The notes: generated by a model from the letters alone, not told the origin. Positions 1,369 through 30,152 are shown, counted from the stretch's first letter. The stretch: 32,840 bases of DNA from Thermodesulfobacteriales bacterium (GCA_004525335.1 SPCL01000001.1:1-32840); one strand, 5' to 3'. Program-made: numbers and translations.

Positions 1369-3525
1369 TTAATTATCATAAAATTTGTTGCCGGAAACAG
1401 ATGCATCTTTAAGAAGAACAGGTGATATGTACCGGGTTCCATATTTAACACTCAGGTTATGGAGTTTCTTTAGAACTTCCCCTGCCCCTTGAGAATCTAC
1501 ATAGTTAAAAGGCCCCCCAATAACCGGGGGGAAGCCAAGTCCAAGGAGCGCCGCAATATCTCCTTCCTGAGGACTGTCGATGATTCCTTCATCAAGACAA
1601 ATAAGCGCTTCATTTACCATTGCCAACATAAGACGTTCTTGTATTTCTTTATTGGTCATGCTCTGAGATTTTTCAGAATGTACAGGGAAAAATTTATAGA
1701 CTGACTTATCAAACCTTCCTTGATCTTTGTGATATTTATAGAAACCTTGTCCGTTTTTTAGGCCTAACCTTTCATTGCTAACTAAGAGGCCAAGAGAGGG
1801 ATGAGGTTTTATTTTATCACCTTGCACTTGATATATTATATTAGATGCTTTCAGCACTAGATCTATCCCTATTCTATCAATAGTCATAAAAGGCCCTTCT
1901 TCAAATCCAAGCCGGGTCATTGAATCTTCTACTGATTCTATGGATACACCCTCGCTAACAAGATTGAGGCTCTCGTTAAAATAAGCCAGCTGCACCCGTG
2001 TAGTGTAGGAGCCGGTTGCCCCGTTTACTACAATTGGGATTTTCCCTAGTCTCTTTAAAAACTCTATCACCTCTGAAAGAGCTTCTTTAGATGTATCGTC
2101 GGTAACAGAAATTTCAACAAATTCAGAGCTGTCGGCATAATTAAAAAAGCGGCCCCCTATAACTCTGCCTGGGAGTATTGAATTTGAAGCAATACCGGCA
2201 ATGGGATAGACAAAAGAGCTTGAGAGATATATAGCATTCATCTGCAAAATCGGCTCTATTTCTTTTAATGCATCAAGCTTAAATTTCAGATCCTCTTCCC
2301 CACATTCAAAAATTATTTGAGCTCTTTTAAAACCTGAATAATCTGCAGTTGCACTAATTAGATCAAACTTCTGTTCAAAGTCCAGTTCTTTTATTTCGTG
2401 ATTGTCATATTTATCTTTGAAGTGATCATAACAATACTTAAGACTCGACCCCACCTCTTCGTCATCCCTTCCCTTCAAGCGGACTTTAACACCGTGATCA
2501 GCAGCTAGAGAACTAATTTCATTGCCTAAATTATTTGCGCCAACAACTGCTATTTTATGAATATCGCCTTTGGCTTTAACGCCTGTTTTAGAAAAGCCTG
2601 ACTCGTCCTTAACTTTTTCTAAAGCCATTTGAGTCCTTATCAAACTTCGTGTCGCAGTGCTTACAACGAGTTCTCCAAAATAAACAGATTCAACATGAAG
2701 CCCCCTGTTAAAGCTGGACATACCAACCTCAAGAGCTTCAATTGCCATTATCGGCGAATTGATTGAGGGCCGCCGGTCTTTATTCGCCTGTTTTCTTACA
2801 TCATTAAAAAGTTTTTTTCGAGCAATCGGATTCTCATTTACAATCGTATGCTGTATGCCCTTAAAGTAACCTCTTTGGGGTTTAAATTCTTTATTTGATA
2901 TCTGCAAGGCGCGTTCAAGGGAAATGTCCAATAGTATTTCAGAAGGAACCACTTCATCTATTAATCCAAGCTTCTTGGCATAAGTTGAATCGATAGTTTC
3001 CCCTGAGAGAATTAGATCAAGCGCTTCTCTTGTACCTATTAACCTTGGAAGCCTTTGCGTACCTCCGGCACATGGGATTAATCCATTTTCGACCTCGTTC
3101 ATTCCAAAATAAGTATTTGAGTTTTCTGAAGCAACTCTGTATGTACAAGCCAAAATTAGCTCAAGCCCCATCCCTAGACAAGATCCACTCACAGCTGCAA
3201 TAAATGGCGCCCTCGAACTCTCTATCTTCTCTGTTACTTCCTGGGCTTTTAAGCTATATCCCCTGCCCTCATCTGCAAGAGTGAAATTGAAGTACTCCCT
3301 TAACTCGGCACCATTAATAAAACTTTTTTCCTTACCGCTATAGAGAACTACAGCCCTTATTTCATCCTCGTTTTCTATCATATCGAGCTGTCTATCAATA
3401 TTGCCTAGGAACTCAAGCATCCAGGCTATATCAATTTGACGCAGCTTGTTTGAGGTGCTCTCAGGGTTATCAAACCTAAGCACTGCTATACCATTTTTAT
3501 CTAATTCAAAAGATATGCTGTTCAT
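1369..3525 (-). CDS. fadJ: Fatty-acid oxidation multifunctional protein (enoyl-CoA hydratase / 3-hydroxyacyl-CoA dehydrogenase), FadJ/FadB-like
   Basis: 718 aa. N-terminal crotonase-fold region (FIAAVSGSCLGMGLELILAC), a central Rossmann glycine motif (KIAVVGANNLG) and a C-terminal 3-hydroxyacyl-CoA dehydrogenase region. It sits immediately downstream of a thiolase gene, the fadI-fadJ order. Confidence 0.9.
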   Translation of the reverse strand: MNSISFELDKNGIAVLRFDNPESTSNKLRQIDIAWMLEFLGNIDRQLDMIENEDEIRAVVLYSGKEKSFINGAELREYFNFTLADEGRGYSLKAQEVTEKIESSRAPFIAAVSGSCLGMGLELILACTYRVASENSNTYFGMNEVENGLIPCAGGTQRLPRLIGTREALDLILSGETIDSTYAKKLGLIDEVVPSEILLDISLERALQISNKEFKPQRGYFKGIQHTIVNENPIARKKLFNDVRKQANKDRRPSINSPIMAIEALEVGMSSFNRGLHVESVYFGELVVSTATRSLIRTQMALEKVKDESGFSKTGVKAKGDIHKIAVVGANNLGNEISSLAADHGVKVRLKGRDDEEVGSSLKYCYDHFKDKYDNHEIKELDFEQKFDLISATADYSGFKRAQIIFECGEEDLKFKLDALKEIEPILQMNAIYLSSSFVYPIAGIASNSILPGRVIGGRFFNYADSSEFVEISVTDDTSKEALSEVIEFLKRLGKIPIVVNGATGSYTTRVQLAYFNESLNLVSEGVSIESVEDSMTRLGFEEGPFMTIDRIGIDLVLKASNIIYQVQGDKIKPHPSLGLLVSNERLGLKNGQGFYKYHKDQGRFDKSVYKFFPVHSEKSQSMTNKEIQERLMLAMVNEALICLDEGIIDSPQEGDIAALLGLGFPPVIGGPFNYVDSQGAGEVLKKLHNLSVKYGTRYISPVLLKDASVSGNKFYDN

Positions 3526-26768: not shown

Positions 26769-27012
26769 TGGATTGTTATACTACCATGGAGTCTATTTTT
26801 GGCAAAGCAAAATAAAGGTCTATTTTACTATTAGTTTTTCAATTGTGTTTTCTTGCACACACTCTGCTGTACCATATAACCTAAAAACCAATTAACCATT
26901 TACTAAAACTTGACATAACACTTCTACATAATTGTATTTTTCTTATTATATATAAATGGCACACATGTTGCTATTTAATTGGATTAAATACAATTAACAG
27001 GGAGGACGTATC

Positions 27013-28248
27013 ATGACAAAAGCAAGAAGAATTCTTTTTATTACAGTTTTGTGTCTTATTGCAGGCGCTTTTCATATTAGCTGTGACGGTGGAGGTGATA
27101 GCAGTGGTCAAAACACTCAGACAACCACCATTAACGGCACGGTAACAAATATAATAGCCTCAGCACAAAAAGAAGAGAGATCTTTTAAGTTTACAAAAAT
27201 TTTAGATATCATAACCTTCATAAAAGAAGCTAAAGCACAAGGTGGTGTTTTAGTGACGGCTATTATTGACGGAATTACAGTAGATAGCGATGTTACTGAC
27301 CCTGAGGGCGACTTCACACTTACATTAGAGCTGGATTCTGCAACAAATGTATTAATCCTCTTTGATGTAAACGGAGAGGATGTTTCTATTGAGCTCGTTG
27401 TAGAAGAAGGATCTATATTAAATATAAACATAAGTATAGACCTCAACGCACCTCCCGGAGACGAAGTCGAAATAGTGGAGATGGAAGAAGTGAGGGGTCC
27501 GATCCGCTGTGAGAACGGAACCGTAAACATTATCAAGAATGAAAATGAGACACTTGTTATAGACGGTGGTGGAGAAGACTGTATTAAAGCTGAAGGGAAC
27601 TGCACGGTGTTTATCGACCCCGAAGATGTACTTTTAACGAATTGCGAGAGTTGTGTGAAGGCAGAAGGAACATCGATGGTAACTATAGTAAGCCCAAATG
27701 GAGATATAGTTTGCGAAGCGAGTGAAGACGGATATAAAGCAGAAGGTGATGCCGAGATAGTAATTGACGCAGTCGGAGTAATCGATATATCGGCGGGAGA
27801 TAATGGACTAAAGGCGGAAGGCAATTCCATCATCTCACTCGGCGCTGATACGTGTATAATTAATTCCCTAGAAAGCTCGATAGATGTAAGCGGTAATGCC
27901 ACAATCGACACAAGCGGCTGTGGGGAAATAGTAGAAGCCCCATCACCGTCTCCAAGTCCGAGTCCTAATCCATCACCGAGTCCATCTCCTTCACCTAGCC
28001 CGAGTCCTAGTCCATCACCAAGTCCGTCTCCTTCACCAAGTCCACCGCCTCCTCTTGGGGTAGCGCTCTATATAAGCAATTGTCAAAGCTGTCACGGAGT
28101 AGACGGCATGGGTGGCCCTTTTTCTAATGTTGTTGGTAAATCGGCAGGTGCGATTTCGACCGCCATTATGGAGATACCGGCAATGTCGAGTCTTAGTTTC
28201 CTCTCAGCAGCAGAAATTAATGCAATCGCTGTGTTTCTTGCTCCATAA
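27013..28248 (+). CDS. Secreted or lipid-anchored multidomain protein: prealbumin-like N-domain, Cys-rich KAEG repeats, (Pro-Ser)n linker and a C-terminal monoheme c-type cytochrome domain
   Basis: 411 aa. SD AGGGAGGA upstream. N-terminal signal sequence ends in Cys24 (AFHISC, a non-canonical lipobox). Shows INGTVTN...DPEGDFTLTL, four repeats around [IVYL]KAEG, a 38-aa PS-rich linker, then LYISNCQSCHG (CxxCH at 28081-28095) with a downstream Met (IPAMS) and AAEINAIAVFL, typical of small class-I cytochromes c. Confidence 0.85.
   Translation: MTKARRILFITVLCLIAGAFHISCDGGGDSSGQNTQTTTINGTVTNIIASAQKEERSFKFTKILDIITFIKEAKAQGGVLVTAIIDGITVDSDVTDPEGDFTLTLELDSATNVLILFDVNGEDVSIELVVEEGSILNINISIDLNAPPGDEVEIVEMEEVRGPIRCENGTVNIIKNENETLVIDGGGEDCIKAEGNCTVFIDPEDVLLTNCESCVKAEGTSMVTIVSPNGDIVCEASEDGYKAEGDAEIVIDAVGVIDISAGDNGLKAEGNSIISLGADTCIINSLESSIDVSGNATIDTSGCGEIVEAPSPSPSPSPNPSPSPSPSPSPSPSPSPSPSPSPSPPPPLGVALYISNCQSCHGVDGMGGPFSNVVGKSAGAISTAIMEIPAMSSLSFLSAAEINAIAVFLAP
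27940..28053 (+). repeat. Coding low-complexity repeat: (Pro-Ser)n / PPPP linker with a 42-nt higher-order periodicity
   Basis: Read directly: PSPSPSPSPNPSPS...SPPPP (38 aa). Synonymous codons are mixed. CCATCACCGAGTCCATCTCCTTCACC (27970 on) recurs as CCATCACCAAGTCCGTCTCCTTCACC (28012 on). Confidence 0.9.
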
Positions 28249-28280
28249 GACCTGATTTGTACTTATAGTGTAAAATAGCG

Positions 28281-28318
28281 CAAAGGGGGGCTGGCATTGA
28301 GCCTTCGCCCTCCCTTTG
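28281..28318 (+). terminator. GC-rich hairpin 33 nt downstream of the cytochrome-fusion gene (putative terminator or structured element)
   Basis: CAAAGGGGGG (28281-28290) pairs with CCTCCCTTTG (28309-28318), 10 bp including one G-T pair, around an 18-nt loop. Only TT follows, so it is not a textbook intrinsic terminator. Confidence 0.45.
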
Positions 28319-28340
28319 TTCTAAAGATGATATTTGTCTA

Positions 28341-28409
28341 GTCCCGGCCTGGTTAGAGCACTGGGTTGTGGCCCCAGAGATCGGTGGTTCAAGTCCAGCC
28401 AGCGACCCA
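28341..28409 (+). tRNA. tRNA-His(GUG)-like sequence with a defective 5' end (possible pseudo-tRNA or truncated copy)
   Basis: Clean anticodon arm CTGGG-TTGTGGC-CCCAG with anticodon GTG. T-arm GGTGG-TTCAAGT-CCAGC has one G-G mismatch. D-loop-like GCCTGGTTAGAGC. 3' end CAGCGAC-C-CA. Two folds are possible, and neither is complete. GTCCCGG (28341-47) as the 5' acceptor strand pairs only 5 of 7 and leaves too few nucleotides for a D-arm. With TA-GTCC...GAGC as the D-arm, the upstream ATTTGTC does not pair with the 3' acceptor strand. No G-1. Confidence 0.45.
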
Positions 28410-28590
28410 CTTCCATCATAATTAACCTCTATGATCCTGATCGATAGGTTTGAAGTGATACGCTAAAACGGGGCGGAGCACAGAGTGGATCCACCCTTCC
28501 AATTATTGACATAAAAAACCGCTTTGTTTGAGAGAAAATATCGGTTTAAATATATATAATCTTTTCACCCGCTTACGGAGGCGCTCACTG

Positions 28591-28998
28591 ATGACACTTT
28601 CTATAATTAAAAGAGGACTTCATATCACCACCATATTGTTAGTATTAATCACCTTCGTCCCTGTTTCTCTAATATCTACAAGCGCCAAAGCCGCCGTAGC
28701 AGAATCCCAAATGATTGCGCCGGAACAAAATGCATCAACAAAAAGAGAAATTAACGAACTCAAAGTAAAACGCGCCTTGGAAAACAAGATTGTTGCTGAA
28801 AAATTAATGAGTCACGGACTCACCAAAGAAGAAGTTTTTCTCAAAATAAACGAGATGAGTGATGAGCAGGTACATCAAATAGCATCCCTCAGCGACCGTA
28901 TCCCTGCCGGTGGAGATGGCGGGCTCGCTATTGTTATTAGTCTACTTATAATAGCTGCACTAGTGCTCCTAATAATTTATTTATATAAGAGAGTATAA
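28591..28998 (+). CDS. Small exported protein with a C-terminal PAGG-TM-basic tail (resembles what I recall as the 'PA2779 family')
   Basis: 135 aa from ATG 28591, with SD GGAGG 9 nt upstream. The ORF-track start at 28528 looks like an extension. N-terminal signal peptide (...LISTSAKA/AV), an ~80-aa charged helical region, IPAGGDGG (28903-28923), then the hydrophobic helix LAIVISLLIIAALVLLIIYLY and KRV. Confidence 0.75.
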   Translation: MTLSIIKRGLHITTILLVLITFVPVSLISTSAKAAVAESQMIAPEQNASTKREINELKVKRALENKIVAEKLMSHGLTKEEVFLKINEMSDEQVHQIASLSDRIPAGGDGGLAIVISLLIIAALVLLIIYLYKRV

Positions 28999-29016
28999 GC
29001 AGCTACAGCGTCTCTA

Positions 29017-29568
29017 ATGCCCCGACTTTACAATATATTAATTCTGTATTTATTAGTTTTCTTTGTGTCAGGCTGCGCTCAAAATGAACCTGTTATAAAG
29101 TCCTACTCTGAAGTTAATAAGGTTGTAGTTATAGAGAATGTTCCATTTGTAAAACAGAAGGACAAATTCTGCGGTCCGGCTTCTATGGCTTCAGTGATGC
29201 AATTCTATGACGAGGATATAAGCCAAGATGAAATCGCAGAAGAAATTTACATACCGGAATTAAACGGTGCACTTATCTCAGATATGGAAAATTATGCGAA
29301 AGACAGTGGTTACACTACAGAGAGCATAAACGGCAGTATTGAAATCCTCAAATCAAATCTAGATAATAAGCACCCGGTCATACTGCTGGTTGATAAGGGC
29401 AAATGGAAAATTAGTGTTCCGCACTTCTACGTTGCATATGGGTATAATGGTGAGAAAGGAACGATTATCCTGCATACTGGATATAAGCAAAACCAAGAAA
29501 TAAGCTATGATAAGCTGGATCAAGAATGGGGAAAAATGAACAGACTTATGTTAGTAATAACACCGTGA
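29017..29568 (+). CDS. C39-like (papain-fold, double-glycine-type) cysteine peptidase lipoprotein
   Basis: 183 aa. Lipoprotein signal with lipobox VSGC (Cys20). Shows VKQKDKFCGPASMASVMQFY (Gln47 / Cys52-Gly53) and PHFYVAYGY (His), then ...SYDKLDQEWG. The order and spacing match peptidase C39-type domains. Lies 18 nt after the preceding gene. Confidence 0.8.
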   Translation: MPRLYNILILYLLVFFVSGCAQNEPVIKSYSEVNKVVVIENVPFVKQKDKFCGPASMASVMQFYDEDISQDEIAEEIYIPELNGALISDMENYAKDSGYTTESINGSIEILKSNLDNKHPVILLVDKGKWKISVPHFYVAYGYNGEKGTIILHTGYKQNQEISYDKLDQEWGKMNRLMLVITP

Positions 29569-30152
29569 GAAACTCCATAATAGAGTTTTACCCACTGGTT
29601 ATTTTTATTTTAATTTTCTGTGGAAGCTGTGCATCACTAGAGGGATCGCTTTTCATGAAAGATCCACTCAATGCACAAGAGCACAATAATCTTGGCGTGA
29701 TTTATGAAAGGGAAGGCAAAAACGATCTGGCTATTAGAGAATATAAAAGCGCAATTAGCAGCGACAACACCTTGGCAACACCCCTTGTAAATCTAGGGAA
29801 TGTTTACTTTAAAGAAGGTGAATATACAAAAGCAGAGAAGTATTATAAGAGAGCGCTTAACTATGATGAAACAAATTTAGAAGCGGCAAATAATCTTGCC
29901 TCTTTATATATTGAAATAGGCGCGCAATATAAAGAAGGCCTTGAATATATGCTTCAAGCTACAAAAAACCTTGAAATAATCCCGCCATATGCGCTTGATA
30001 CAATTGGGGTATTGTACATAAAACTTGGGGACAACGTCGAAGCTGAAAGAGTTCTTATCCGGGCTTGCAACAATATTAAAGACAATGAATCTCTAAGAGA
30101 AGAAATACGCTCTCACCTTTGGCAATTGGGTATTAATAAAAGATGTGGATAA
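29565..30152 (+). CDS. TPR-repeat protein with an N-terminal signal/anchor sequence
   Basis: Start set at GTG 29565, which overlaps the peptidase stop (GTGA). It gives VRNSIIEFYPLVIFILIFCGSCAS..., a hydrophobic leader. At least three TPR units follow (HNNLGVIYEREGKNDLAIREYKSAI, LVNLGNVYFKEGEYTKAEKYYKRAL, ANNLASLY...). The ORF-track start is 29526. Confidence 0.8.
   Translation: MRNSIIEFYPLVIFILIFCGSCASLEGSLFMKDPLNAQEHNNLGVIYEREGKNDLAIREYKSAISSDNTLATPLVNLGNVYFKEGEYTKAEKYYKRALNYDETNLEAANNLASLYIEIGAQYKEGLEYMLQATKNLEIIPPYALDTIGVLYIKLGDNVEAERVLIRACNNIKDNESLREEIRSHLWQLGINKRCG

Follow-up and report, generated by a model that had tools for sequence, protein, structure and literature searches.

In cytochrome c_y of Rhodobacter capsulatus (CycY) and cytochrome c552 of Paracoccus denitrificans, a monohaem class I cytochrome c is joined through a long, flexible Pro/Ala-rich linker to a membrane anchor at the N-terminus, and CccB (cytochrome c-551) of Bacillus subtilis is a monohaem cytochrome c that a lipid anchor keeps on the outer side of the cytoplasmic membrane. 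Among one-electron carriers, cytochrome c and cupredoxin are the classical pair that can stand in for each other, and lipid-anchored single-domain cupredoxins, i.e. halocyanin and amicyanin-like proteins, hold copper as their cofactor, as opposed to the haem of the protein considered here. This protein is encoded in a 32,840-nt stretch of DNA (the window, in which all positions below are counted) from an uncultured, marine-type bacterium of Candidatus Dadabacteria. Its open reading frame (ORF), 27013–28248 on the plus strand with the ATG at 27013, specifies 411 aa that combine a lipoprotein signal peptide, a transthyretin-like β-sandwich, a Cys-rich β-solenoid, a Pro/Ser linker and a C-terminal cytochrome c domain; all five parts, which had been picked out in an earlier sequence-only reading, are found at the coordinates collected in Table 1, beyond what chance would give. 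We hold with high confidence that the protein has this architecture and that the fusion arose by capture of the cytochrome domain from another gene.

Membrane-anchored c_y with its flexible linker is described as an established carrier between the bc1 complex and oxidase (PMC7876108). The window protein has the elements of this class of tethered carriers, namely a membrane anchor, a flexible linker and a single redox domain, and it is like c_y and c552 in placing the anchor at the N-terminus, ahead of the long flexible linker and the monohaem class I cytochrome c. The anchor of c_y, however, is a transmembrane helix, whereas that of the window protein would be a lipidated Cys together with two folded β domains, the sandwich and the solenoid. 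The haem domain is also shorter (~63 aa, PF13442-type) than that of c_y, with no sequence kinship beyond the cytochrome fold. The window protein resembles CccB as a lipid-anchored monohaem cytochrome c, although CccB comes from a monoderm host and has neither a folded scaffold nor a long Pro-rich arm. By analogy with these systems we lean, by a little, towards a membrane-tethered periplasmic electron carrier of the c_y/c552/CccB kind, set on a novel anchor. Were this so, the protein would bring a new type of anchor to the class of c_y, CccB and halocyanin; it puts the tethered monohaem carrier, a design already known, on a scaffold yet to be characterised, and it opens no new kind of biology.

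The origin of the cytochrome can be followed at the nucleotide level. The same fusion is found at a second locus, L003, on an 86-kb contig from another metagenome that was assembled independently at the Joint Genome Institute (JGI), and the flanks of this locus are 97–99% identical to those of the window, which places the two in the same species. Compared with the cytochrome-less loci L001 and L004, both the window and L003 are longer by ~365 bp, which lie after the Pro/Ser repeats and ahead of the sequence TCCATCATAA; this sequence ends the gene in L001, and homology between the window and L001 resumes exactly at its copy, 28412–28421. The left part of the insert (28049–28343) is 78% identical in nucleotides, over ~295–305 bp and through the stop codon and the terminator, to a contig of the same genome, C302, and the captured cytochrome has 63% amino acid identity to its counterpart there. 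P0222, to which the C302 gene is orthologous, is a lipoprotein that contains three cytochrome c domains and holds the final one on a Pro/Thr arm. As read from these alignments, the insert is a copy of the 3′ end of a gene of the C302/P0222 type, with its terminal cytochrome c domain, its stop codon and its terminator, followed by a tRNA-His pseudogene, and the old stop of the recipient gene has been replaced. All more distant relatives are without the insert, so parsimony favours a gain in this species. The locus thus offers a clean and datable case of the gain of a redox domain, in which the donor stop and terminator were kept, a tRNA pseudogene lies at the junction and the old stop was left stranded.

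The tri-domain lipoproteins of the C302/P0222 type, which come from Thermodesulfobacteriota and are annotated only as ‘c-type cytochrome’, resemble the window protein in that the same mini-cytochrome c ends the chain after a linker rich in Pro or Cys, and C302 has the terminator in common with the insert; they differ in that two further cytochrome c domains stand N-terminal to it, where the window protein has the sandwich–solenoid scaffold. On the minus strand of C302 (~2198–3028) there is an in-frame TAA within the middle cytochrome domain (LEAFGT*GISL), at a position occupied by Glu in P0222, which could mean that the gene is a pseudogene, that strains vary at this site or that the sequence is in error.

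An assembly join or a missed stop had been named in the sequence-only reading as something that could undo it, and the fusion might indeed be suspected of being an assembly chimera, a missed stop or a frameshift in the Pro/Ser repeats, given a junction that falls within tandem repeats and a genome that is a fragmented metagenome-assembled genome (MAG) of 306 contigs. At L003, however, in DNA from another sample, the fusion is likewise in frame although the repeat number differs, and the old stop left behind downstream is the mark of a genuine insertion. A second assembly made independently, a junction that keeps the frame and this relic of the stop together rule out an assembly or annotation artefact, to which we attach a negligible probability.

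Further along the insert, the hairpin that follows the captured stop codon has a predicted folding energy of −27.3 kcal/mol (RNAfold, z = −3.6) and is kept in C302 and G009; a simple consensus terminator scan did not call it (28276–28323). The tRNA-like right end, of 63 bp, is identical to the true tRNA-His of relatives from the D-loop through the anticodon arm, with diverged acceptor and T stems. A functional tRNA after the gene was considered and rejected, as ARAGORN called no tRNA 3′ of the gene and the Rfam tRNA score (20.8 bits) falls under the cut-off of 29, which leaves a pseudogene of the lineage’s tRNA-His. An intact tRNA-His was not found in the 92%-complete assembly, in which 29 tRNAs were called, and in genomes of the same genus the true tRNA-His is often located at contig ends.

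The class I cytochrome c module that had been proposed for the C-terminus is borne out by domain searches, in which residues 349–409 match PF13442 (E 3e-7, 31.1 bits against a gathering cut-off of 27) and PF00034 (21.7 bits against a cut-off of 21.3). The haem-attachment motif CQSCH lies at residues 357–361, and Met391 is the putative distal ligand, aligning with a Met in every related cytochrome c domain compared (about six), all of which also keep the C, C and H of the motif. The captured domain is accordingly predicted, from these motifs and matches, to be a monohaem class I cytochrome c with attached haem, for which the gene has the export signal, and the genome the Ccm genes, that such attachment requires.

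Residues 1–347, on the evidence of homologue alignments, are a full-length member of an uncharacterised lipoprotein family of Dadabacteria and Thermodesulfobacteriota. A homologue search of 5.8 billion clustered proteins returned ~55 sequences of 50–83% identity, nearly all of them 310–335 aa long and ending in a short Pro-rich tail, and a profile search of 1.84 billion representatives extended the scaffold family to 184 clusters at 50% identity; species-representative genomes put this family in MAGs of Candidatus Dadabacteria and Thermodesulfobacteriota. Members (the MAG protein KAI07_06610, P0007, for example), at 50–84% identity, have in common with the window protein residues 1–347, the eight Cys of the solenoid and the genomic position, but stop at the Pro-rich tail where the window protein adds its cytochrome c. 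The only other one of the ~55 homologues to have the cytochrome is P0002 (417 aa, 83% identity), encoded at L003, and the extension is absent at 16 of 16 species-representative loci. The domain combination, which had not been recognised in the earlier reading, is therefore rare at the scale of the whole homologue search, with the window protein and P0002 alone in having this cytochrome on this scaffold. The question had also been raised whether the repeat region always carries a cytochrome; it does not, since nearly all members of the repeat family are without one and the fusion is a species-level insertion. A match of the repeats to a well-characterised family with a non-redox role had been foreseen as another way in which the reading could fail, but the scaffold family is uncharacterised and the solenoid part matches no Pfam family. 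The analysis thereby defines an unannotated lipoprotein family of the widespread, uncultured Dadabacteria, with a confidently modelled solenoid that has no close solved relative. A search of the literature on cytochromes in Dadabacteria found nothing relevant.

The wider family is varied in its accessory parts. Seven members of 475–594 aa (P0073, P0075, P0076, P0094, P0129, P0130 and P0136) have highly acidic, Cys-rich tails of 150–280 residues after the scaffold, with repeats of the CEEVC or CxExC type. P0096 and P0111 have two tandem solenoid modules that are joined by a Pro-rich linker, without the sandwich, which indicates that the solenoid is an independent, mobile domain. A GH16 assignment for the C-terminal domain of P0159, suggested by an EIDFEF motif, was dropped as Pfam gives it no support. 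Distant paralogues in the window’s own genome, C278:3921-4562(-), C77:23482-24066(-) and C170:693-1382(+), have 24–29% identity and no Pro-rich tail.

Two further fusions of this scaffold with a cytochrome, P0128 and P0218, occur in a distant branch of the family, and in each of them a mini-cytochrome c homologous to that of the window (~53–57% identity) follows a Pro/Thr linker. The linker and cytochrome of P0128 resemble the C-terminal arm of the tri-domain P0222, which suggests that a similar capture has taken place twice. P0219 has a scaffold 79% identical to that of P0128, but its Pro/Thr linker leads to a cupredoxin of the type-1 copper kind (PF00127, 34 bits, cut-off 21); with its scaffold, linker and copper domain P0219 matches the tethered design of the lipid-anchored cupredoxins. 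No PF00127 cupredoxin is present in the window’s own genome. The genomic contexts of P0128 and P0219, which are short contigs with differing neighbours, are uninformative. The sequence-only reading had pictured a haem domain that swings on its linker to shuttle electrons, and the occurrence of cytochrome c and cupredoxin on the same scaffold elsewhere in the family lends this idea indirect support.

The DNA of the Pro-rich linker repeats would probably serve as the recombination target by which different passenger domains are acquired, and the fusions suggest that such repeats are hot spots of domain swapping. A broader proposal is that the sandwich–solenoid is a dedicated docking or anchoring scaffold for interchangeable periplasmic carriers, which lineages load independently through recombination in the linker repeats and which may position the carrier at a respiratory complex; we put this forward tentatively and consider it unlikely.

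The genome provides a setting in which a tethered carrier could work. Genes like ccmF and ccmC are present, indicating that the organism is able to mature c-type cytochromes, and the absence of a maturation system, which had been named as grounds for abandoning the cytochrome assignment, does not apply. At least 12 other PF13442 domains are encoded, as are one cytochrome b and two haem-copper oxidases (COX1), both of which have an ORF with a cytochrome c domain ahead of them; from the oxidases and the cytochrome b it follows that cytochrome c-dependent respiration exists in this bacterium. The cytochrome b ORF, C148:7795-9093 (+), is of ~500 aa with a C-terminal PF13442 domain and lies ~2.6 kb downstream of COX1, so that an oxidase and a complex of the bc type seem to form a cluster on this contig. 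In the mechanism that we propose, the product would be a cytochrome c on a flexible Pro/Ser arm, of ~39 residues, that extends from a folded, membrane-anchored scaffold, and it would shuttle single electrons from the cytochrome b complex, or another donor, to the cytochrome c-dependent haem-copper oxidases.

Several observations count against a role as a carrier. No respiratory genes are found among the neighbours (rsmD, coaD, an aminotransferase, the PA2779/PA2778 cassette and fmt). Most members of the family are without a redox domain and others have unrelated tails (acidic Cys-rich repeats or unassigned domains), so that the scaffold is not intrinsically a redox device, and the window type of fusion is restricted to one species-level lineage. 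The cytochrome domain is poorly modelled by AlphaFold2 (AF2), with a predicted local distance difference test score (pLDDT) below 35, the alignment having too little depth in this region. The ratio of non-synonymous to synonymous substitution rates (dN/dS) of the captured domain is 0.72 against the C302 paralogue and 0.31 against L003, the latter from only 8 differences and so too few to inform, and these values do not establish purifying selection on the domain.

These points raise the possibility of a neutral or decaying accretion, i.e. an accidental recent capture without a role of its own, in which case the protein would act as the cytochrome-less members of its family do, in an envelope, structural or binding function. 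The confinement of the fusion to one species, with close relatives at 82% identity that lack the cytochrome, fits such a history, as do the dN/dS of 0.72, the tRNA pseudogene that shows the insert to hold junk as well, and the in-frame TAA of the donor-like C302 gene. On the other hand, two strains have kept the frame, the CxxCH and the Met, the comparable fusions P0128 and P0218 persist at 70% identity in another branch, and the presence of a cupredoxin in place of the cytochrome on this scaffold speaks for selection of carrier passengers. An accretion of this kind is unlikely in our judgement.

The signal peptide ending in Cys24 that had been noticed at the N-terminus proves to be a lipoprotein signal. 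The leader, MTKARRILFITVLCLIAGAFHIS|C, has a basic n-region, a hydrophobic core and an FHIS|C end in which the His at −3 is atypical; Cys24 is invariant across 45 homologues, and the lipobox is canonical in the majority of them (L-x-[GAS]-C, as LSLSC, LLAC or LLGC). Asp25 takes position +2 of the lipidated Cys, where the Asp+2 sorting rule is one of the E. coli type only. The first 34 residues have pLDDT below 50 in the AF2 model, and the length of the tether differs between homologues.

The prealbumin-like sandwich that had been predicted next in the chain is probable on structural comparison. In the full-length AF2 model residues ~77–145 reach pLDDT 70–83, and the best Foldseek matches in the PDB are transthyretin-like proteins and 5-hydroxyisourate hydrolase (E ~1e-2, target-normalised template-modelling (TM) score ~0.6). 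PF13620 (CarboxypepD_reg) matches 17 of the 45 family members, with a best E of 2e-8 and mostly under the cut-off, and gives no match at E ≤ 0.01 in the window protein itself.

Modelled alone, residues 161–308 form an all-β coil with pLDDT 94.4 and a predicted TM score (pTM) of 0.89 (AF2), in keeping with the solenoid that had been guessed from the repeats. The estimate of four to five repeats of ~25–30 aa also stands, as the four copies of KAEG, at residues 192, 216, 242 and 267, are 24, 26 and 25 residues apart, or about one rung, and a fifth, degenerate rung lies near 291. The proposal that KAEG is the repeat signature fails, however, for relatives read CIRTEGNC, CVDARGTS, RARG and KADG, with CIRTxGNC / CVDARGTS as the family consensus; KAEG was therefore rejected as a family motif, being confined to the window allele and the fragment P0003. 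Eight solenoid Cys (166, 190, 197, 211, 214, 234, 281 and 303) are invariant in the family, and the distant paralogues retain only four of them, as two apparent pairs, which fits disulfides better than a metal cluster; we infer from this conservation that the solenoid Cys form disulfides. The linker that follows, APSPSP...PPPP, is present as described, at 39 aa (309–347) where 38 had been counted, and its DNA consists of imperfect tandem repeats of 18, 24 and 42 bp.

The shape of the solenoid leads to another explanation, that of a surface or outer-membrane lipoprotein in which the solenoid binds polysaccharide or mineral and the haem carries out extracellular redox chemistry or sensing. The solenoid is weakly like the β-helices of carbohydrate-active proteins, Pro-rich tails could span the envelope, and between strains the solenoid segment forms an allelic or recombinational mosaic, a pattern often seen in exposed proteins. 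The resemblance to right-handed β-helix folds is not significant, however: the best Foldseek match, a PL3 pectate lyase, has E 0.04 and TM ≤ 0.5, none of the structural matches does better, and no catalytic motif is conserved. With no Pfam Beta_helix match in the window protein and nothing below E 0.1 in a PDB sequence search with the scaffold, membership of the pectate-lyase-like right-handed parallel β-helices was rejected, and the domain is, as far as the model goes, a solenoid only in its general shape. A single haem on a flexible arm would moreover be a poor extracellular conduit, and no porin or multihaem partner is found near the gene.

The mosaic itself speaks of purifying rather than diversifying selection. 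The solenoid-coding segment, 27477–27926, is 69–87% identical to L003, against the 97–99% of the flanks, with dS 0.69 and dN/dS 0.24, and L003 is closer to L001, which belongs to another species, in the solenoid than in the flanks; together these values point to recombinational exchange of alleles under purifying selection. Positive selection in the segment was rejected on the same dN/dS and dS. A surface role is consequently quite improbable in our view, and the tethered periplasmic carrier remains the reading that we favour.

Table 1. Features of the fusion gene and of the insert that created it, in window coordinates
Feature	Position	Strand	Basis
Shine-Dalgarno sequence GGGAGGA, 6 nt 5′ of the ATG	27000..27006	+	Direct reading of the sequence
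Lipoprotein signal peptide, residues 1–24, invariant Cys24 followed by Asp25	27013..27084	+	Translation; lipoboxes of homologues
Gly/Ser/Thr-rich tether, probably disordered, residues 25–36	27085..27120	+	AF2; homologue alignment
Probable transthyretin / CarboxypepD_reg-like β-sandwich with inserted helix, residues 37–147	27121..27453	+	AF2; Foldseek; PF13620 in homologues
Cys-rich β-solenoid of ~five rungs, residues 161–308, 8 invariant Cys, four KAEG motifs	27493..27936	+	AF2; invariant columns
Pro/Ser linker, residues 309–347; left junction of the insertion inside the linker or at its end	27937..28053	+	Imperfect tandem repeats; DNA alignment
Monohaem class I cytochrome c domain, residues 349–411; CQSCH codons 28081–28095, putative axial Met391 28183–28185	28057..28245	+	PF13442; alignment of related domains
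Copied segment: cytochrome domain, stop codon, terminator and ~25 bp	28049..28343	+	blastn/tblastn against own genome; pairwise alignment with C302:2403-2107
GC-rich hairpin then UUUGUUCU, likely intrinsic terminator brought in by the insert	28276..28323	+	RNAfold; conservation
5′-truncated, degenerate tRNA-His(GUG) pseudogene, right end of the insert	28346..28408	+	Rfam; comparison with tRNA-His of relatives
Relic of the ancestral gene end, TCCATCATAA (..P S stop), 3′ of the insert	28412..28421	+	DNA alignment with L001

Around the gene, one early observation was upheld and another was not. The strong Shine-Dalgarno sequence is present ahead of the start codon, at the spacing given in Table 1. 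The gene does not sit alone, as had been supposed, since a same-strand cassette of PA2779, a split PA2778 peptidase and a tetratricopeptide repeat (TPR) gene lies directly downstream, in an order that is kept down to relatives of ~52% identity. A functional link to this cassette was considered and set aside for want of independent evidence: the whole region is syntenic in relatives, housekeeping genes included, the most distant homologue, P0055, is located elsewhere, and the terminator-like hairpin stands between. The cassette spans 28594–30152, with a PA2779-family gene, a C39 peptidase gene of the PA2778 type and a TPR gene that stands by itself; this last gene corresponds to the C-terminal portion of the PA2778 model, which marks the arrangement as a split version of the PA2779/PA2778 pair.

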